Shown here piece by piece: positions 9,468-53,136 of a DNA stretch of 64,000 bases. The translations under genes were made by a program, and so were the position numbers. Every line of letters starts with the position of its first letter. The first letter of the stretch is position 1. The stretch is from an uncultured Alphaproteobacteria bacterium. Its GTDB lineage: Bacteria > Pseudomonadota > Alphaproteobacteria > RF32 > CAG-239. Location: assembly GCA_944391715.1 (NCBI GenBank), contig CALXUP010000001.1, forward strand, positions 100,676 through 164,675. The letters are read 5' to 3'. The notes beneath the pieces were generated by a model, which saw only the letters and a program-made list of their open reading frames with translations, ran no database searches and was not told the origin of the DNA.

Positions 9468-9698
9468 AAACTGCGCAATACGGACGCCTAATACAGAAAA
9501 GGAAAATCCGGCTAAGTTACGTACGTCTATGTACGCGCCTGTCGCCGGATTTTCCTTTTCTTATTATCCGTCTTAGGTATCTAGGCGCGCTGCGGTTGCT
9601 AACGCTTTCCTAGCTTGCCAAGATGTTCCAAAGAGCTTGCAGACAAAAACAACCGGAGCAGCGGTTGTTTTTACTTAGCGCTTCTATCGCAGTTTTTA
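9465..9698. mobile_element. Complete MITE-like palindromic element, long form (R1+R2 modules, ~234 bp), bounded by the TIRs TAAAAACTGCG / CGCAGTTTTTA. Its first TAA is the lptF-like stop codon.
   Basis: Near-identical to the copy at 17832..18064. The 11-bp terminal inverted repeats are read directly. Internal hairpins sit at 9497-9558 and 9646-9673. Confidence 0.8.
9646..9673. terminator. Bidirectional rho-independent terminator-like hairpin carried inside the repeat (aaaaacaaccg-gagcag-cggttgttttt)
   Basis: 11-bp perfect stem and 6-nt loop, with A-run and T-run flanks giving U-tracts on both strands. The same hairpin recurs at ~9849-9876 and ~18017-18044. Confidence 0.6.
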
Positions 9699-10040
9699 CA
9701 GCGGCTTGAAGAGACGTTTGTTATGGAAAGTTTAAAGCTAACCTGTCGCTAAAATTCTTTTTTCTTATTATCTGACTTAGGCATCTAGGCGCGCTGCGGT
9801 TGCTAACGCTTTCCTTGCTTGCCAAGATGTTACAAAGAGCTTGCAGACAAAAACAACCGGAGCAGCGGTTGTTTTTGCTTAGCGCTTCTATCGCGTTTTT
9901 TACAGCGGCTTGAAAGGAGATTTAGTATGGAAATTTTTTAGGTGGCTAAGTTACGTACGTCTATACGCGCCTGTCGCCTTAAAGTTTTTTTCTTATTACC
10001 AGTCTCATTTTCTTTGTTTTTTACAGTGGCTTGAAGGAAG
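9699..10040. repeat. Degenerate tandem partial copies of the same element (R1 3' half, a second R2 module, then fragments of R1/R2), filling the convergent intergenic space.
   Basis: Recognisable blocks ttaggcatctaggcgcgctgcggttgctaacgc... and ggctaagttacgtacgtctatacgcgcctgtcgcc are shared with the other loci. Confidence 0.75.
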
Positions 10041-10044
10041 GTCG

Positions 10045-11412
10045 TTAACTTTCCAAAATGTTTAAGCTCTGGCTGGTTTTGGCGATATCGGTGGTTATTT
10101 TACGGGTTTCTTCAATATTATCAGCGTTTTCAAAGATATAGAGTGCATCGTGAAAATATTCCAAAGCTTCTTCCAGCAATGCTTTGTCTCCGGCGTTTTT
10201 GCCCAGGCGGTAATAGATTTCGCCGATGTGTTCCTGGCTTTTGGCCCATTCCATCGGTGCCCGCCGTTCGGTTATGACTTTTTGCTGGTTTTTATAGCTG
10301 GCAATGGCAAGTTCCGAGATTTCCTCGCTTTTGGTAAAGTTGCCGAGAAGGCCGAGCATATAGCCCAATTCGCCTTGGATTTGCGCCCAGAATTCCGGAA
10401 ACAAGGCAAGCGTATAAATTTTTTCCGCTTCCCGCAGTTGAAAAACGGCATCGCGCAAAGCCTGAATGTCTTCTTTATACAGCCAGTAGCTTAAAAACAA
10501 ATGGGATAATTTATAAGATATATAGCCGTAATCATACGGGTAATTATATTTGCTCAAATATCTTTGCGCCTGGCGGTAATAGTTAATGGCTTCCCGGAAA
10601 TGACGAGCCGATTGTTTGGGGATGTATTTGGTCGAGCAGTCATAGAGCTGTCCGAGGTGGTTGTAGATACAGCCGAGATGGATTGGTGCGGTTATCAAAT
10701 CCTGATGTTTCAGCGCCGTGTCGAAAAGGTTTTTTACGATTTTGAAGTCTTTGCCCTGGCCGCGGTCAAAACAATAACTGAGGTAAATGATACCCAGAAA
10801 GTTCATTATATAAGGCATATATTCGATGGAGAGGTTTTTGGCGGAATCGTCCTTTGAAAGAGAATTGATTATCCTTTTCAGCAAATATCTTTTTTGGATT
10901 TTCTTTTCTTTTGAAAAAGTATTGAGCGAGCTGACAACGGCGCCGTAAATCAAATTGCCGACGGCGGGCGGAATTTTGTTTCCGGAGGATAATAAATCAG
11001 CCGGGATGTATAAACTGTCCAAGAGTGAAACAAAAGCGCAGTCTTCGTTTTCATATTGTTTTTCGGTCTGAAAATTCAGACGGATCCTGCTGCCTTCGCG
11101 ATATCCCCAAATTAAAACGTCGGCCTGTGTCTTGTCCAAAATGGTTTGTCCCCGGTCAATCAGATCAAACAGTGTCCGGCTTTCCAGATTGAGAAAGGTT
11201 TTGGAGAAAGGTTCATCAAAATATGAGACTTCCAAACCGTCTTTGCCGCTTAACAGGCGTGCGATGACTTCACCGCTGTTGCTTTCTATATTTTCGGAAA
11301 ACTCAACGACGACGACCTTGAATTTTATCAAATCTATGGCATTGACCGCCAAATTCAGATTATCGGGGCGGGTATGAAAAATTTTATGAAAAAAATCGGT
11401 CAGCCGCATCAA
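10045..11412 (-). CDS. Hypothetical 455-aa protein with a TPR-like C-terminal half and an unrecognised N-terminal domain
   Basis: Long ORF with good coding texture and an ATGA start/stop overlap with the upstream gene. The C-terminal region is rich in helical repeats with Y/L/A periodicity (YYRQAQRYL, YYRLGKN). Confidence 0.6.
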   Translation of the reverse strand: MMRLTDFFHKIFHTRPDNLNLAVNAIDLIKFKVVVVEFSENIESNSGEVIARLLSGKDGLEVSYFDEPFSKTFLNLESRTLFDLIDRGQTILDKTQADVLIWGYREGSRIRLNFQTEKQYENEDCAFVSLLDSLYIPADLLSSGNKIPPAVGNLIYGAVVSSLNTFSKEKKIQKRYLLKRIINSLSKDDSAKNLSIEYMPYIMNFLGIIYLSYCFDRGQGKDFKIVKNLFDTALKHQDLITAPIHLGCIYNHLGQLYDCSTKYIPKQSARHFREAINYYRQAQRYLSKYNYPYDYGYISYKLSHLFLSYWLYKEDIQALRDAVFQLREAEKIYTLALFPEFWAQIQGELGYMLGLLGNFTKSEEISELAIASYKNQQKVITERRAPMEWAKSQEHIGEIYYRLGKNAGDKALLEEALEYFHDALYIFENADNIEETRKITTDIAKTSQSLNILES

Positions 11413-12503
11413 TTTCTTTTATCCTTATTTATATTGTCTTTAATGTCTTCAAAATTGCTTTTGATTTCGTTTATGACATTTCGGTTGATTTCGCGAAAAC
11501 TTTGATTAGCGGTTTGCCAGTGTTTCAGTTTGCTTAAATACCAGGCCGTGATTACGGCGCTTAATACCGGGATGGAATAGATATTCGGAGAATAGGCTTC
11601 GAAATATCCGAGAACAATCATGACAATTTCCAGGCGCAGAATGTTGTTGGCGATGTTATCGGGAGAAAGCCCGGAAATATTGGCCTGGAAATAAGCAGTG
11701 TTTGCCGTGATATCGGAATATTTGTCTCTTAAAGCCAGAGCTTGCAGTAAGGCCCAGGAAACTTCGATGATGAAAAACATATTGAAAATTATCAGACAGG
11801 GCGCTGCGCCTTCCGAGGCAGAGCGGAATATTAATCCGCCAAGCAAAAATCCCAGAGCCGTGCAGCCGGCGTCGGAAAGCTGCAAGCGGGCGGGATACCA
11901 GTTGAACAAGAGAAAGGCTCCCGTAACGGCAGCCAGAATCAGCGCCAGAGCGCCGAGCAGATGCGGAAGTGCAGCGGCCAGGGATAAGGTAAATATACCG
12001 AGTGCAACAGCAACCGTATGAAGACCGGCAACACTTTCGACCCCGTTTAAAAAACGGTACAAAAAGCTAAAAGCGAACCATAACAATACAGAGAGGAGCA
12101 GGCTTAACGGCGCCGGAATTTGAGGAAGCAACGGTTGGCTCTCCGGCATAAGGAAGGTCAAAACTGCCGTTCCGGACAGCACGGTCAGGGCGGCATATTT
12201 GGCTGAAAAACGTGAAGAAACATAAAAAATCAGAGCGGTTGCCGCGAGCAGAATCGGAAGTTCAAGCACGGAATATCCGCTGATAAAGTCATTGTCTTGT
12301 CTGAAAACAAATGCTGCAATCAGACCGAAAACGGCGAAAAAAACAAAAATAACGGCAAAAGGCGGAATTTGCCGTTCAAGCCGGGAAATTCTCTGTTGGT
12401 TCAGGACATAAAAACCGGCAAAGCTTAAGAAAAAGCTTGCAACAGCACAAATTGTCAAGAATGTATTGTCAAAATTCATTGCCTGTTTTCTCCGGTTTTC
12501 CAA
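11409..12503 (-). CDS. GT4-family (MraY/WecA-like) polyprenyl-phosphate sugar-phosphate transferase homolog. It is divergent, with an eroded catalytic motif.
   Basis: Multi-TM protein. LFNWYPARLQLSDAGCTALGFLLGG matches the MraY/WecA block FNxNPAKxFMGDxGSxxxGF. The upstream DGxDGL block is replaced by VESVAGL. Confidence 0.6.
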   Translation of the reverse strand: MENRRKQAMNFDNTFLTICAVASFFLSFAGFYVLNQQRISRLERQIPPFAVIFVFFAVFGLIAAFVFRQDNDFISGYSVLELPILLAATALIFYVSSRFSAKYAALTVLSGTAVLTFLMPESQPLLPQIPAPLSLLLSVLLWFAFSFLYRFLNGVESVAGLHTVAVALGIFTLSLAAALPHLLGALALILAAVTGAFLLFNWYPARLQLSDAGCTALGFLLGGLIFRSASEGAAPCLIIFNMFFIIEVSWALLQALALRDKYSDITANTAYFQANISGLSPDNIANNILRLEIVMIVLGYFEAYSPNIYSIPVLSAVITAWYLSKLKHWQTANQSFREINRNVINEIKSNFEDIKDNINKDKRN

Positions 12504-12548
12504 ACTATTGTAGTCGATTAATTTATTTGTTCAATAATCAATGTATTT

Positions 12549-13457
12549 TTATGCGGAGATATCTTTGGGAAGGATTTTTTTCAATGCCGGGATTGCAATA
12601 TCGTGGCGGCGGGCAAAATCCGAAACGGCCATATTGATGTTGTTGATTTCCCGGCGGGACGAATCTCCCGGCGTTTGAGTGTCATAAACATAATTTATCG
12701 GCGTGTTATATATTTTTTTTAATATTTCGGCGTTATCCAAAGAGACATTTTCGGCGGCGGCCAGGGAGCATATTTCATTGACGGCGTCTTCAATGTTGTT
12801 TTGTTTTTCTTTGTTCTTCAGTATGTTGAATATGCTTTGGCGGTAAAAGGCGGAAGCCAGGGCCGAGACGGCGTAGACCGAAAAAGCCTGCCAAAATACC
12901 TGGTTTTTGTCTTCGCAGGTTTGGCAGAGAATCTCGGAACTATGAAAATAACTTAATGCTTTCAGGGAATATTCCAGAGTGTTAAACGGTTTGGAAAGGG
13001 TAATCTGCGGTTCTCCGCCGAGAATGAAAATCTGGTTGTCTTTTGAGAGCAGCCAGCCGTCAAAATATGCCCGAATCGTACTGTGCCGCAACAGGCTTTC
13101 GATAATTCTGAAATCGGGGAGCATTGAAAATACAACAACCGGCGCATTTGAAAAATGAGATGACGAAAGCAGCATCAGTTCGGATTTTAAGTTGCGGCTT
13201 TGGGAGGTGATTATCAGCATTTTGGCTTTTTCGGAGGAATAATGCCGGCAGGGAACGTTTGTTTTTTGTTTTTTCAGGCTGTGTTCTTCCCGCAGGCTGA
13301 TTTCAATTTCGGAATCGCAGCTGTTTCGCGGCGCGATTATAACGGCATTTTCTCCTTTGGCGATGAATTTGGCGGCAAGATATCTGCCGAGAGGCGTGTT
13401 GCCGAGGATATATATCGGTGGTTTTGATACGGATGTTGTTTCTTGAGGTACGGGCAT
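12549..13457 (-). CDS. Ketopantoate reductase (PanE/ApbA) family protein, divergent
   Basis: C-terminal block SSRREINNINMAVSDFARRHDIAIPALKKIL aligns with the ApbA_C motif RRTEIDYINGYVVRLGRRHGVATPVNRAL. The N-terminal Rossmann glycine loop is degenerate (IYILGNTPLGRYLAA). Confidence 0.5.
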   Translation of the reverse strand: MPVPQETTSVSKPPIYILGNTPLGRYLAAKFIAKGENAVIIAPRNSCDSEIEISLREEHSLKKQKTNVPCRHYSSEKAKMLIITSQSRNLKSELMLLSSSHFSNAPVVVFSMLPDFRIIESLLRHSTIRAYFDGWLLSKDNQIFILGGEPQITLSKPFNTLEYSLKALSYFHSSEILCQTCEDKNQVFWQAFSVYAVSALASAFYRQSIFNILKNKEKQNNIEDAVNEICSLAAAENVSLDNAEILKKIYNTPINYVYDTQTPGDSSRREINNINMAVSDFARRHDIAIPALKKILPKDISA

Positions 13458-13460
13458 GGT

Positions 13461-14756
13461 TTATTTTGTCCTTTGCATTTTGGCAATGAAGAAAGAATCG
13501 GCTCCTCCGTAAGACTGCAAATGATACGGAAACGTGCGGATAAAGCCTTCGGCGGTAAATATTTCAGCAGGCATTGTACCGGAAAAATCGTTTGGCGACA
13601 ACGGAAACAGCCGGAATTCGGAATTGTTTTGCAGAAAAGCGGTTATTTGCCGTTCTCCTTCCTCTTTGGCAATGGAACAGGTGCAATATGTCAATTCTCC
13701 GCCGGGGCGCAGAACCCAGGTCGTTCGGTTGAGGATTTCTTTTTGCAGACCGGCCATTTTTTCAATATCCCGGGTATTTTTGATATGAACGATTTCCGGA
13801 TGGCGACGCAAGGTTCCGGTTGCCGAACAGGGGGCATCAAGCAAAACGGCGTCGTAACGGTCAGACGTTTCTTCCAGATATTTTGCGGCATCGGCACAAA
13901 TAATCCGCGGGGCCGGCAAGTTTAGACGACGGATGTTTTCAGCCAGTCTTTTCAAACGTTCCTCCGAAATGTCAAGCGAAACGACTTCCGCACCGGCAGC
14001 CAGAAGCTGGGCGGTTTTTCCGCCGGGTGCCGCACAAAGGTCCAAAATCTTTTTTCCGGCCGGGGCGCTTATGGTTTTGGCGGCGAGAGAGGCCGAGAAA
14101 TCCTGAACCCACCATTCGCCTTCCTTATAACCGGGAAGTTTTTCTATTTTTCCGTTGTTTTCCAGGCGGACGGAACCGTTCGGCAACAGTATTCCGTTTA
14201 ATTTTTTTGCCCACTCCGCCGCGTTTTCTTTGATCGTCAAATCAAGAGGCGGTTCATTCAGTGAGGCGGCTTCGATTAACGCCGTTTGTTTTTCGCCGTA
14301 GTCTTTTTCCAGGAGTTTTCGGAAACCGTCGGGAAAAAATATGCCGTTATCCGCTTTCAGGAGTTCTTCTTTGGCGGCGGCAATTTTGCGTAAAACGGCA
14401 TTGGCAAAACCGGCGACGTATTTGTCGTTTTGCTTTTTTATCAGGTTGACATAGCTGTTGAGTACGGCGTAATCAGGCGTATCAAGAAAAAGGATTTCGG
14501 CGGCGGCCAAAATCAGCGCATAACGGGCAAAGGCGTGTTTGGCCGGGAGTTTTTTGGCGGCAAAAGTCGAAATGACTTTTTGCAAGAAGACCAACCGGCG
14601 CAAAGCAGTGAGCACCAGCATATTTAAAAAAGCCGTATTTTGCTGTTCGGCAGGAGAAGAAATGTTTTTTATCTCGCTGAAAAAACAATGTTTTTCCAAT
14701 ATGTCCTGCAAGGTTTCGGCAGCCTGTTGACGCGGATCGATCATCCTTTTTTCCAA
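13461..14756 (-). CDS. rsmB: 16S rRNA m5C967 methyltransferase RsmB (Sun)
   Basis: NusB-like N-terminal domain and the SAM-binding motif DLCAAPGGKT, with catalytic cysteines in the PCS/TCS context (DAPCSATG, YCTCS). Confidence 0.9.
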   Translation of the reverse strand: MEKRMIDPRQQAAETLQDILEKHCFFSEIKNISSPAEQQNTAFLNMLVLTALRRLVFLQKVISTFAAKKLPAKHAFARYALILAAAEILFLDTPDYAVLNSYVNLIKKQNDKYVAGFANAVLRKIAAAKEELLKADNGIFFPDGFRKLLEKDYGEKQTALIEAASLNEPPLDLTIKENAAEWAKKLNGILLPNGSVRLENNGKIEKLPGYKEGEWWVQDFSASLAAKTISAPAGKKILDLCAAPGGKTAQLLAAGAEVVSLDISEERLKRLAENIRRLNLPAPRIICADAAKYLEETSDRYDAVLLDAPCSATGTLRRHPEIVHIKNTRDIEKMAGLQKEILNRTTWVLRPGGELTYCTCSIAKEEGERQITAFLQNNSEFRLFPLSPNDFSGTMPAEIFTAEGFIRTFPYHLQSYGGADSFFIAKMQRTK

Positions 14757-17834: not shown

Positions 17835-18064
17835 AAACTGCGCAATACGGACGCCTAATACAGAAAAGGAAAATCCGGCTAAGTTACGTACGTCTATGTA
17901 CGCGCCTGTCGCCGGATTTTCCTTTTCTTATTATCCGTCTTAGGTATCTAGGCGCGCTGCGGTTGCTAACGCTTTCCTAGCTTGCCAAGATGTTCCAAAG
18001 AGCTTGCAGACAAAAACAACCGGAGTAGCGGTTGTTTTTGCTTAGCGCTTCTATCGCAGTTTTT
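17832..18064. mobile_element. Complete MITE-like palindromic element, long form. Its first TAA is the leuS stop codon. The right TIR variant is CGCAGTTTTTG.
   Basis: About 98% identical over ~230 bp to 9465..9698. The same TIR and internal hairpins are read directly. Confidence 0.8.
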
Positions 18065-19826: not shown

Positions 19827-20900
19827 TTAGTTTTCTTTTCGGCAAAAACGGTTAAAAAATAAAGCCAGCTGCCGGATGAAAAAGATTGCGGCGATTGATG
19901 AAAAATGGAAGAACATAGCGCAGGCTCCAAAAATGGCCAGAACAGGGATCCATTTTCCCGAAAGTTCAAAATCCGAATAAAATACCGGAATTCCATAGCA
20001 TAAAGTTATGAATACATAAAGCATCAGCAGAAAGTAGATTATTCTTATTATCGGGCGGAGAATAAATTTTTTGAATTTTCCGCAGGGCTTGTTTTTTATG
20101 AATTTGCGTATTTTTTGCCACTGATACGGGGCAAAAATGTTTCCGCCGTATATTAAAAACATAATGCAAATAATATTGAGGAACATAAAATTTAGAAAAG
20201 CCTGACTACTGAAGGAAGGTGAGGCAAAAAAGGCGTCATTTATGAAATTAACAACGGCATTTTTATGCTCTATTCCCGGATTGCTGAGGTAAAGCGCATT
20301 TTGGCAATAAAGGATTATGTAAGCGAAGAACCCCAGAAAAAGAAGAAAACGGTCAATGAATACCTGATCGACAAATTTTCTGATTTTTAGAAGATGCTTT
20401 TCTTCTTCCGTGGAAAGCCGTTCAATTTTTCCGATGTTGGCAATGATGAAGAATTTATTGAAAAAAGTTTGTTTTATTTTTCTTCTGAATGAGATTTTTG
20501 TGCCGGTGTTTTGCTCTTTTGCTTGTTTCAGGGCACGGTTTATTACTGAATAAGTTTTGAAAAATAAAGTTATCTGCGGCAGGCAGTAAGGGGTAATTGG
20601 AGATTTTTTCCAGGTGATAACGGCAAAGGCATATACGGAAAACAGCATAATCATCATTGCCGGTGCCGAAGGATGTTTTTGGTACAGGGCGGATCCGGCA
20701 AAAAATGTCAGATAGGCAAGCCAGGCAAGGCATATTAATTTGAAAAGGATTCCGTTGTTTTGTTTGTTTTCAATATGTCTCAGCAGTTTTTTCAGCGGAT
20801 TGCCGGCCGCCAGCCGATCGGAGATTCTTAGTCCCGGAATCTGTTTTTGGAATTGTTCAAAATTTTCGGGCAGAAAGTCTTCGGGTGTTATGTCGGTCAT
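19827..20900 (-). CDS. Hypothetical polytopic membrane protein (357 aa) with no recognisable family, in a low-GC islet
   Basis: At least 8 predicted hydrophobic helices and an ATGA overlap with the upstream ORF. AT-rich codon usage distinct from the flanking genes. Confidence 0.55.
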   Translation of the reverse strand: MTDITPEDFLPENFEQFQKQIPGLRISDRLAAGNPLKKLLRHIENKQNNGILFKLICLAWLAYLTFFAGSALYQKHPSAPAMMIMLFSVYAFAVITWKKSPITPYCLPQITLFFKTYSVINRALKQAKEQNTGTKISFRRKIKQTFFNKFFIIANIGKIERLSTEEEKHLLKIRKFVDQVFIDRFLLFLGFFAYIILYCQNALYLSNPGIEHKNAVVNFINDAFFASPSFSSQAFLNFMFLNIICIMFLIYGGNIFAPYQWQKIRKFIKNKPCGKFKKFILRPIIRIIYFLLMLYVFITLCYGIPVFYSDFELSGKWIPVLAIFGACAMFFHFSSIAAIFFIRQLALFFNRFCRKEN

Positions 20901-21862
20901 TGCGTTTTTCCTTTTCCGTTTGTTGTTCGGAGATCGACGGCAAAAATCCTGTTATAAAGTTTGACGTAGAGTTTTGACGGATTTTTTCTCCGGTCGGCGC
21001 TCAGATGAAGAATTTGTTCCGGGTGTTCCGGGGCGGAGGATATTGTAAATTTTTGCGGATAAGGCGGGCAGCCTTCGTAAAAGCCTTTTTGTTTTTTATA
21101 TTTTTCCGGAATGTCTGCCAGTTTTATAGTATCTGAGAACTTTGGATAGGTGTCAATAAAACGGATGTAATTGGTTCCGCAATAGGTAAAGCGGTCTTTT
21201 TGCGGGCAGAAGTTCATTATGGAAACCGTGAAGAACCCTTTTTTATCTTTTAACGGAACGACCTCGTAACCGGCAGCATAAAGCCTGTAGTCTTTCTGGT
21301 CTTTGGTAATGAGCAGGTCAGAAGAGAACATCGGTCTGAAGAAAGGATATTTCCAGTAAGAAACGGCAATCGGAGATAAAATATTTTCGATTTTCGGCTG
21401 GCATTTATTTTTTGAATCAGGAAAGGTGATTTTTTGCAGTGAAAAAAACGGAAATTCCGTTTGGGGAAGATGCAGTTTTAATTTTTCGTACTGATCCGTG
21501 CGGGTAAGTGTGCCGGCAAAACCGCTGTTGATGATGCCGAAATTGTTTTCTTTTTTCAAATTTGTAAAGTCGGAGATTTCCGTATATGTGTTGGTTAATG
21601 TTATGGGCGATATGGACGTTGTTTCTTTTGTTGACGGCCGTTGTTGAAGTAATTCCGAGCTTTTTCGGGCATAATGGGAATCTTTATATTGATTGTCGAT
21701 GCAGGCGGTCAATTTATCTAAGGAAAGAGTGCTGCTGCACCAGAAAAGCGGTTGGGCTTCGAAAAAAAATTTATAATATTTGTTGTACAATTTGACATTT
21801 ATGACAATAAGCACGAGGACAAATATGAGAATAAGGATGCGGCGGAAATTGCTCAGAGGCAT
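20897..21862 (-). CDS. Hypothetical protein (321 aa), N-terminal membrane anchor plus an extracytoplasmic domain, unknown family
   Basis: TM helix ILILIFVLVLIVINV followed by a soluble Cys-containing domain. Translationally coupled to 19827..20900. Confidence 0.55.
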   Translation of the reverse strand: MPLSNFRRILILIFVLVLIVINVKLYNKYYKFFFEAQPLFWCSSTLSLDKLTACIDNQYKDSHYARKSSELLQQRPSTKETTSISPITLTNTYTEISDFTNLKKENNFGIINSGFAGTLTRTDQYEKLKLHLPQTEFPFFSLQKITFPDSKNKCQPKIENILSPIAVSYWKYPFFRPMFSSDLLITKDQKDYRLYAAGYEVVPLKDKKGFFTVSIMNFCPQKDRFTYCGTNYIRFIDTYPKFSDTIKLADIPEKYKKQKGFYEGCPPYPQKFTISSAPEHPEQILHLSADRRKNPSKLYVKLYNRIFAVDLRTTNGKGKTQ

Positions 21863-34321: not shown

Positions 34322-35179
34322 TTAAGACAATTTTCGGAGGAGGATTTTGAGCTTTCCTTTTAACGTCAACCTTGCTTTCTCCCATTGGACAAACGAATAA
34401 AGAACCGGATAGAGCTTGTCATTGATCTGAAAAACACAATGATAATTTTTCAGTTTATATTTTCCTTCGTCAACCAGGTCAGCACATCCCTTAGATACAG
34501 CATAAAGCTTGGCATTGCCGCTTTCATCCAAAAGAAGATAAGCATTGTCAAAAGTAATAATGTTTTTTCCTTCTGCAAAAAATTTATAAGCCCCGACTTT
34601 GGGAACAAAACCGTAAATTTTCATCTTGTTATTACAATCATCAACGGTTATCAACTCTGCTTTAGCAGGACTGTCGTAACGATAAATATCAAAATATCCA
34701 TCACTTCTTTCAATAACAATCGTTTCATCACAGATAAAAAACGGTTTGCTATACTGTTTTTGAATAAGTTTAAAAGGGTCTGCTGTTAAAAAAGACATAG
34801 TATAATTTTCTTCCGGATAACTTTTCAGATAGAAACATTGTTTCGTTTTAAAAGAACCATAATTTTCGGCTTTTCCCAGACATTCATCTTTGCCCGAAAC
34901 GTTTTTCCGTCTCAGATACCAAAGCCCGTCTTTTTGATATATCAGGCATTTGTCATATTTTTTGATATCAGAACAGTACTGCGGGGTTTGATGCAGTTTG
35001 TCATCCTCAATCCAGAAAAAGCGAAAATTTTCCTCTGAATCTCCCGCTTTTGCCTCCGTCAAAGATTGATCAACCGTAACAGTAATACCCTCGTCCAGCT
35101 TTTCAAACTTTTCCAATTTACTGTCCCATAGCCACAAAATATTCAGGCCGGCAGCTTTTGTAATAATAAAATGTTTCAT
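34322..35179 (-). CDS. Hypothetical protein (~286 aa from MKHFII at 35179), no recognisable domain, low GC
   Basis: Long ORF convergent with 33567..34277. Cys-containing soluble protein. Confidence 0.5.
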   Translation of the reverse strand: MKHFIITKAAGLNILWLWDSKLEKFEKLDEGITVTVDQSLTEAKAGDSEENFRFFWIEDDKLHQTPQYCSDIKKYDKCLIYQKDGLWYLRRKNVSGKDECLGKAENYGSFKTKQCFYLKSYPEENYTMSFLTADPFKLIQKQYSKPFFICDETIVIERSDGYFDIYRYDSPAKAELITVDDCNNKMKIYGFVPKVGAYKFFAEGKNIITFDNAYLLLDESGNAKLYAVSKGCADLVDEGKYKLKNYHCVFQINDKLYPVLYSFVQWEKARLTLKGKLKILLRKLS

Positions 35180-35310
35180 GACATAAAAATATTTAATTTG
35201 ACATAATTTTATTTTGCCCGATGAAAGTAGCATAACGTGCCGGAGAAGTCAACAGATGCTTGAAACCGGAGAAGCGGGGGCTATATCTTTGTTGTTTTAA
35301 GGAGGGGAAA

Positions 35311-47368: not shown

Positions 47369-47492
47369 AAACTGCGCAATACGGACGCCTAATACAGAAA
47401 AGGGAAATCCGGCTAAGTTACGTACGTTTATGTACGCGCCTGTTGCCGGATTTTCCTTTTCTTATTATCCGTCGCGTCTATCGCAGTTTTTA
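47366..47492. mobile_element. Complete MITE-like element, short form (R1 module joined directly to the right TIR, 127 bp). Its first TAA is the hppA stop codon.
   Basis: TIRs TAAAAACTGCG / CGCAGTTTTTA. The body is ~95% identical to the R1 module at 9465 and 17832. Confidence 0.8.
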
Positions 47493-53010: not shown

Positions 53011-53136
53011 TAAAACCGCGCTCTGTGGTCACCTAATACAGAAAAAGGAAATCCGGCTAAGTTATGTACGTTTATGTACGCGCCTGTCGCCGGATTTCCT
53101 TTTTCTTATTATCCGTCGCGTCTATCGCGGTTTTTA
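53011..53136. mobile_element. Complete MITE-like element, short form, with covarying TIR variant TAAAACCGCG / CGCGGTTTTTA
   Basis: Body ~90% identical to 47366..47492. Both TIR arms carry a compensatory T->C and A->G change relative to the other copies. Confidence 0.8.

Follow-up and report, generated by a model that had tools for sequence, protein, structure and literature searches.

Members of the PNPT superfamily (PF00953), among them MraY, WecA, WbpL, and DPAGT1/Alg7, are dimeric proteins, MraY included, and MraY, WecA, and DPAGT1 are antibiotic targets. To our knowledge, these PNPT proteins have apparently been studied only as enzymes. Pseudoenzyme partners of membrane glycosylation and prenyl enzymes are known in eukaryotic NgBR/Nus1, which works with DHDDS, and in Alg14, which anchors Alg13 beside Alg7. 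Here we describe a locus in a 64,000-nucleotide stretch of DNA from an uncultured Alphaproteobacteria bacterium (assembly GCA_944391715.1, contig CALXUP010000001.1, positions 100,676 to 164,675, forward strand; hereafter the window), in which the gene for a PNPT-like protein, here called GT4L, is followed directly by that for a TPR-like protein, TPR455, and preceded by genes for RsmB and for a ketopantoate-reductase-like protein, PanEL. GT4L would resemble NgBR/Nus1 and Alg14 in concept, in that a membrane protein which is catalytically dead or never was catalytic brings in cytosolic partners, or regulates them, where lipid-linked glycans are made; it lacks any sequence or fold relation to NgBR and Alg14, however, and the likeness would be a functional analogy only. 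The best reading of these sequences is that GT4L represents a pseudoenzyme branch of the PNPT superfamily with a dedicated TPR partner, and we give a probability of about 0.45 to the proposal that GT4L and TPR455 are a separately promoted, translationally coupled pair encoding a non-enzymatic inner-membrane module. Neither a report of an inactive PNPT paralog nor an account of the GT4L-TPR455 module was found in the literature searched on MraY/PNPT pseudoenzymes or inactive paralogs and on RF32 gut Alphaproteobacteria.

Loss of the catalytic motifs from a PNPT-fold protein

GT4L (356 aa) is encoded on the minus strand at 11409-12479. Its open reading frame (ORF) runs over 11409-12503, from an upstream TTG at 12503, but the ATG at 12479 is most likely the start because homologs begin MNF[DE]. 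PF00953 matches the protein with an E-value of 5.8e-9 over profile positions 61-157 only. Comparison of 80 family members with 17 canonical relatives using hhalign gave a probability of 100% and an E-value of 1.3e-44 over 343 columns, and GT4L retains the 11-helix PNPT fold; both family-profile homology and fold therefore place it in the superfamily. A word-indexed protein search returned 13 GT4L relatives, a number that understates the family; when the family profile was searched exhaustively with HMMER, 122 GT4L clusters (50% identity) were recovered below 1e-30, with the canonical enzymes ranking below them. About 120 of the clusters match over their full length, C-terminal tail included.

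A motif table built from about 140 representatives divides cleanly, in that the canonical proteins recovered by the same search keep the DD, FMDGIDG, GDVGS, and AHxxHxYQ motifs and the GT4L family keeps none of them, the corresponding columns being variable rather than fixed to a new residue. In the cytoplasmic loop between the third and fourth transmembrane helices, the DD motif that serves Mg2+ binding and catalysis (canonical D89-D90) is replaced by S-S or a gap in the window protein and by variable residues over about 120 of the GT4L clusters. The NxxNxxDGxDG(L) motif of the loop between the fifth and sixth helices, NFMDGIDG in canonical proteins, reads RFLNGVES in the window (R for canonical N145, N for D148, E for D151), and the second Asp, in the D151 column, survives only in some GT4L relatives; the remnant NGVES, which lies at 12033-12047 on the minus strand and was located by hhalign column mapping, varies across the family. 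The column of the Mg2+-binding GDxGS Asp (D206, corresponding to D267 of E. coli MraY) is unconserved and holds N, E, L, S, P, T, or K, although the window protein itself has D at this position (QLSDAGC). The His motif of cytoplasmic loop E, AHxxHxYQ, is represented by ANTAYFQ in the window and by the consensus xNTxYYQA in the family, with H261 and H264 replaced by A or other residues, canonical D242 has become E (86% conserved), and the canonical N-terminal PNxRSxH..PRGGG block is absent. The original prediction, made from the sequence alone, had called attention to a lost DGxDGL motif; profile alignment bears this out and extends the loss to DD, the variable GDxGS Asp, and the His motif. The strings GNTPLG (in PanEL), NGVESVAGL, and FNWYPARLQLSDAGCTALGF on which that prediction drew are all present, but a block it had quoted as FNxNPAR is in fact FNWYPAR. 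From the absence of all canonical motif blocks, which sets GT4L apart from the rest of the superfamily, we infer that its catalytic activity has probably been lost.

Canonical relatives of GT4L score best against WecA models, and their genes sit among GT1, epimerase, and Wzy genes in clusters of the O-antigen type. GT4L therefore descends from a WbpL/WecA-type initiating transferase and not from MraY; of the MraY/WecA-like affinity first proposed, the MraY side is not supported, and the active enzymes nearest to GT4L are transferases of the WbpL/WecA type that initiate O-antigen synthesis. The present context of GT4L also differs from those of its relatives, its neighbors being rsmB and a TPR gene rather than a dcw or O-antigen cluster.

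Among 76 diverse members, the best-kept residues are D64, P172, E223, S302, and W313, together with N145 (83% conserved), N193 (79%), E239 (86%), N260/T261 (87% for N260), and N299, with E223 reaching 99%. Topology assigned by homology indicates that the former cytoplasmic catalytic loops have been shortened and that D64 and E223 lie in periplasmic loops, and the transmembrane helices and periplasmic loops are conserved at least as well as the cytoplasmic loops. Unlike other PNPT proteins, GT4L has an additional conserved amphipathic helix at its C-terminus. This tail, HWQTANQSFREINRNVINEIKSNFEDIKDNINKDKRN (11412-11522, minus strand), is Lys-rich and predicted to be cytoplasmic; AlphaFold2 (AF2) places a helix at residues 328-355, which carries the further well-conserved residues N332, K340, and K347 and a hydrophobic stripe formed by F328/I331/V335/I339/F343/I346/I350. 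The tail would be a candidate docking peptide for TPR455.

TPR455 and the GT4L-TPR455 gene pair

TPR455 (454 aa; 10045-11409, minus strand, with its ATG at 11409-11407 and the ORF as listed covering 10045-11412) has 514 homologs, the top 120 of which share at least 62% identity. Its AF2 model (mean confidence score, pLDDT, 87) begins with a disordered N-terminus, in which there is a short amphipathic helix, and continues through an alpha/beta head into the TPR helices, in agreement with the N-terminal domain of no known family and the TPR-like repeats of the original prediction. The head (residues 28-140; 10990-11328, minus strand), delimited by AF2 secondary structure and invariant columns, contains the invariant polar residues E42, E47, K70, D82, D85, R110, N112, Q114, Q118, E120, and D131, and neither Pfam nor PDB sequence searches gave a match to it at E-values up to 10. 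The remainder (10051-10968, minus strand) forms an LGN/Pins-like superhelix of about 8 repeats; tandem helix-turn-helix units are evident in the model, and the Pfam TPR_10 match is weak and under cut-off. TPR superhelices of the LGN/Pins type bind extended or helical peptides in their groove. TPR455 is only 13-16% identical to LGN/Pins scaffolds, LapB/YciM, BamD, and Rap/NprR, however, and differs from LGN/Pins and from the bacterial TPR adaptors in its unique N-terminal alpha/beta domain. The Pfam scan and the AF2 model show neither a LapB-like rubredoxin domain nor a transmembrane anchor in TPR455. Membership in a defense system was considered and rejected, PADLOC giving no match for PanEL or GT4L and only a spurious HerA match (E 0.022) for TPR455.

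The pairing of GT4L with TPR455 is the most constant feature of the locus. Among 80 metagenome loci found by searching with TPR455, and counting those with enough upstream sequence, GT4L lies immediately upstream of TPR455 in 66/67, rsmB is found upstream in 48/48, and PanEL is present in 40 of 54 and absent from the other 14. Adjacency of GT4L and TPR455 likewise holds at every genome or contig locus inspected, even where the downstream neighbors have changed. The sole exception (L106:1-1156) has, in place of GT4L, 1.1 kb of AT-rich sequence that lacks any long ORF oriented like TPR455; the coverage of this contig is about 2x, and it is probably an assembly artifact or chimera, although it could be a real rearrangement. 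The complete order rsmB-PanEL-GT4L-TPR455 occurs in 12/12 genome loci and in distant contigs that have other downstream genes, and loci lacking PanEL form a subclade of at least four lineages (L135, L138, L144-L154, L155, L156) with the order leuS-rsmB-GT4L-TPR455. The link with rsmB in the original prediction is borne out, the arrangement beside that gene being shared by all genomes of a deep-branching group of gut Alphaproteobacteria, but what had been described as a three-gene module reduces to an invariant unit of two genes, GT4L and TPR455.

Inspection of the gene junctions, in which the coordinates of sub-features were verified through translation, leads to the same division. The four consecutive minus-strand genes of the original prediction are all present, but they are not chained by overlaps. 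Between the rsmB stop codon (TAA, 13463-13461) and the PanEL ATG at 13457 stand the three bases ACC, a gap of 3 nt in place of the overlap that had been proposed. Likewise, the minus-strand bases at 11409-11412, previously given as ATGA, are TTGA; the GT4L stop codon (TGA, 11411-11409) and the TPR455 ATG share 1 nt within TGATG, the sole overlap among the four genes. Between the two tightly coupled pairs, rsmB-PanEL and GT4L-TPR455, lies a spacer of 69 nt (12480-12548, given the GT4L start at 12479). Across loci, the rsmB-PanEL distance is -4 to +3 nt in 14/15 cases (the outlier, 216 nt in L013, is probably explained by a mis-called PanEL start), the GT4L-TPR455 distance is -4 to +9 nt, and the PanEL-GT4L spacer measures 59-110 nt.

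Within this spacer we found, by consensus scan and cross-species conservation, a promoter-like motif, TTGAAC-N16-TACAAT (12507-12534, minus strand), next to which come GGAG and then the GT4L ATG. A motif of the form TTGAA[CG]-N16/17-TA.A.. is present in every spacer read (L001-L015, L083, L084, L135, L138, L144, and L156), is retained at loci with about 30% protein identity, and in PanEL-less loci sits directly after rsmB. The total number of matches in the consensus promoter scan is not above chance, and the promoter claim is made because the motif is conserved across species, not from the scan; the motif is likely, on this footing, to be an internal sigma-70-like promoter of GT4L-TPR455. Given the conserved spacings and the spacer motif, the unit is therefore to be seen as two coupled pairs rather than as one co-transcribed chain of four genes, and GT4L-TPR455 as a putative invariant, separately promoted bicistron. 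A scan with Rfam in and around the module gave no credible structured RNA.

Ratios of nonsynonymous to synonymous substitution rates (dN/dS) are 0.006-0.022 for TPR455, 0.016-0.031 for leuS, 0.07-0.10 for PanEL, 0.085-0.146 for GT4L, and 0.10-0.15 for rsmB, and the ORFs are intact in relatives down to roughly 20-30% identity. All of the genes are under purifying selection and therefore none is a pseudogene; decay of GT4L and PanEL in particular is ruled out by their dN/dS of about 0.1 and by reading frames that stay intact in many lineages. The constraint on TPR455 equals that on housekeeping genes, and both former enzymes are far less constrained. Where LeuS is about 84% identical, the identity of TPR455 is about 70%, that of RsmB about 53%, that of GT4L 42-46%, and that of PanEL about 35%, and in the most divergent module (L087) Pfam recognizes neither GT4L nor PanEL.

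Copies of the locus, close and distant, occur only in metagenome-assembled genomes (MAGs) of uncultured Alphaproteobacteria, from sources that include human, mouse, Hadza, and water-deer gut, and in metagenome contigs that are mostly from human gut. We infer that the carriers belong to an RF32-type gut order. Cluster members are named by NCBI as 'hypothetical protein' or 'ketopantoate reductase C-terminal domain-containing protein [Alphaproteobacteria bacterium]'.

PanEL, rsmB, and the surrounding sequence

PanEL (302 aa; 12549-13457, minus strand) is recognized by ApbA_C at 2e-6, above the Pfam cut-off, and by TIGR00745 at 2.5e-10, far under the NCBIfam cut-off (40 vs 141 bits). In a PDB profile search, the family profile matches the ketopantoate reductase 3hwr over its full length (E 1.3e-7, residues 14-292 against 21-300), with further matches to 3wfi, 2ew2, 2qyt, and 3hn2. 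Like the PanE/ApbA proteins (PF02558, PF08546; 3hwr, 3wfi, 2ew2), PanEL keeps a two-domain layout with a C-terminal helical domain that Pfam can recognize; unlike them, it is without GxGxxG and the catalytic Asn and Lys, its gene is coupled to rsmB, and some members of its clade do without it. A word-indexed search returned 12 PanEL relatives, again an understatement of the family. The dinucleotide-binding loop (13386-13403, minus strand) has GNTPLG where GxGxxG is expected, GAGAVG aligning to GNTPLG such that the NAD(P)H fingerprint GxGxx[GA] is broken; only the first Gly of the loop is invariant in the family, and the fingerprint is intact only in L015 (GNGALA) and L084 (GSGALA). The catalytic residues of E. 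coli PanE are Asn98 (QNG) and Lys176 (WxKL), with Glu256 also counted among them. In PanEL, WAKL of 3hwr aligns to WQAF, placing Ala at the Lys position (WxKL is now FWQAF), and QNG aligns to S-M-L with loss of the Asn; the window protein does have an equivalent of the Glu (RREIN), a residue that is not invariant in the family. The degenerate Rossmann loop reported in the original prediction is thus part of a wider erosion. Two relatives keep the catalytic Lys, and these are other than the two deep relatives that keep GxGALA, a mosaic pattern of motif retention that fits a progressive erosion. PanEL can accordingly be called a ketopantoate reductase family member by homology only, and it is translationally coupled to rsmB.

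The product of rsmB (13461-14756, minus strand) matches Pfam Methyltr_RsmB-F (7.5e-49) and NusB (2e-20) and the NCBIfam RsmB model (6e-85; score 285.7, under the equivalog cut-off of 375), and contains both catalytic Cys motifs, DAPCS (DAPC309) and TCS (TC359). It is likely to be a 16S rRNA m5C967 methyltransferase ortholog, with the reservation that it falls short of the equivalog cut-off, and looks catalytically intact. Pfam and NCBIfam matches are weak for all module genes except RsmB, but the families they indicate (RsmB-F/NusB, ApbA_C/TIGR00745, PF00953, and a weak TPR_10) are those assigned from the sequence at the outset.

Core genes flank the locus: lptG, tyrA, and cysK lie beyond TPR455, and DUF3576, leuS, lptE, and holA beyond rsmB. 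Comparison with L005 reveals a divergence trough at about 11500-14500, where nucleotide identity over rsmB-PanEL-GT4L is only 72-82%, against about 95% in the flanks; identity to L004 is steady at about 93% throughout this region, and a similar trough separates L010 from L014. The synonymous rate dS is 0.8-1.6 in the module vs 0.2-0.3 in leuS, lptG, tyrA, and cysK, and the window LeuS is nearer that of L005 whereas its GT4L is nearer that of L004. This pattern suggests homologous recombination or allele replacement centered on the rsmB-PanEL-GT4L locus.

On the other side of TPR455, the intergenic region between it and the convergent lptG (9468-10044) contains a 204-bp tandem duplication (9538-9733 and 9742-9937, 89% identical) that bears a hairpin, AAAAACAACCGGAGCAGCGGTTGTTTTT, and a 21-mer, GGCTAAGTTACGTACGTCTAT. 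Both recur at other intergenic positions (17877-17897, 18012-18039, 47411-47431, and 53055-53075), which suggests a dispersed repeat family resembling repetitive extragenic palindromes or miniature inverted-repeat transposable elements (REP/MITE-like); in the relative L001 the lptG-TPR455 junction is only 4 nt long. Elsewhere in the window, three minus-strand ORFs of 300-357 aa (19827-20900, 20897-21862, and 34322-35233) have no Pfam match at E-values up to 1e-5, and the first two overlap by 4 nt in the manner of an operon pair.

Possible roles of the GT4L-TPR455 pair

In the proposed non-enzymatic module, GT4L would be a former WbpL/WecA-type polyprenyl-phosphate sugar-phosphate transferase that retains the PNPT fold and, being without the residues for Mg2+ binding, catalysis, and nucleotide-sugar recognition, would make no lipid-linked sugar. 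It would serve instead to anchor the module in the membrane, might also bind a ligand or lipid, and would recruit TPR455 through its conserved cytoplasmic tail, perhaps together with a remodeled pocket. The LGN-like superhelix of TPR455, of a type that wraps long peptides, would dock from the cytosol at this anchor, TPR455 being the functionally dominant and most constrained component, and PanEL would be an eroded, optional accessory coupled to rsmB and lost by some lineages. A repurposed, possibly non-catalytic role had been put forward in the original prediction, and for the GT4 homolog a non-catalytic role is still the best reading; the catalytic signatures are gone from both enzyme-family proteins, which are under purifying selection. 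GT4L and TPR455 may interact physically, and a part in regulating the envelope or the lipid carrier can be guessed at from the ancestry of GT4L.

Several observations weigh against this proposal. The promoter call is based on sequence conservation only, and the GT4L tail is conserved no better than the rest of the protein. At the protein level GT4L evolves about ten times faster than TPR455, which is unexpected for an intimate, obligate interface. In addition, the polar residues N145, N193 (in FNWYPA), E239 (canonical D242), and N260/T261 are kept near the former active-site region, and GT4L may therefore have changed its chemistry or may bind a ligand. Finally, the synteny is known from a single clade in which the leuS-DUF3576-rsmB neighborhood is conserved as well, and the linkage could stem in part from phylogenetic inertia.

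The last point also speaks for the idea that these genes are just neighbors, independent of one another and held in an inherited order, with GT4L and PanEL as slowly decaying relics. Such an account, which we consider unlikely, would explain why upstream leuS, DUF3576, and rsmB are equally conserved, why the evolutionary rates of PanEL, GT4L, and TPR455 differ so strongly, and why PanEL can be lost. It is difficult to reconcile, however, with the 66/67 co-occurrence of GT4L and TPR455 or with their tight adjacency behind a promoter-like motif of their own while downstream genes change, and decay is excluded by the dN/dS of about 0.1 and the intact ORFs of distant relatives. Residues kept near the former active site raise instead the prospect of neo-functionalized enzymes, in which GT4L would be a transferase with a new residue set (e.g., E223, E239, N145, N193, and N260/T261), PanEL a reductase, and TPR455 the organizer of a pathway to some lipid-linked or membrane metabolite. 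Support for this idea, which seems to us distinctly unlikely, is provided by the high conservation of a subset of GT4L polar residues (E223 and E239 among them), several of which align with former active-site columns, by the retention of GxGALA in some PanEL relatives and of the Lys in others, and by purifying selection on all genes. Yet every Asp essential in MraY/WecA is lost, at positions that are variable and hold no new fixed residue; only six GT4L positions are at least 90% conserved (80 sequences), and the best-kept acidic residues, D64 and E223, are periplasmic in the homology-based topology, away from the cytoplasmic active site. Moreover, PanEL is dispensable in one subclade, and Pfam recognizes neither protein in the most divergent modules.

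GT4L might alternatively be a regulatory pseudo-subunit that heterodimerizes with MraY or WecA/WbpL, or sequesters undecaprenyl phosphate, and thereby tunes flux between cell wall and polysaccharide in response to signals that TPR455 feeds in from the cytosol. The fully retained PNPT fold and the conservation of transmembrane helices and periplasmic loops are consistent with such a role, and dead paralogs that regulate active ones have general precedent (e.g., the prozyme paper PMC5201418). Active PNPT genes were not seen in the window or in the loci, however, and a protein that evolves as fast as GT4L is not expected to keep a tight interface with an essential enzyme that changes slowly; we regard this as the least likely of the possibilities weighed here. 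A related form of the non-enzymatic module, in which a dead GT4L binds the lipid carrier or dimerizes with an active PNPT protein and its tail links TPR455 to control over how undecaprenyl phosphate is used or the envelope is assembled, is to our minds improbable. Were this improbable form correct, no earlier pseudoenzyme branch of the MraY/WecA (PNPT) superfamily would be known from bacteria, GT4L being the first, and the TPR455 head would define a new fold family.

TPR455 is probably an important protein of uncultured Alphaproteobacteria that are common in the gut of humans and animals. If the retention of the fold, the loss of all catalytic residues, and the link to TPR455 hold across this large, clade-wide family, the non-enzymatic reading of the GT4L-TPR455 pair would mean that the PNPT fold is reusable as a membrane scaffold or sensor. 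In practice, automatic annotation of these proteins as 'glycosyltransferase family 4' or 'ketopantoate reductase' is likely to overstate metabolic capacity in MAG-based reconstructions.

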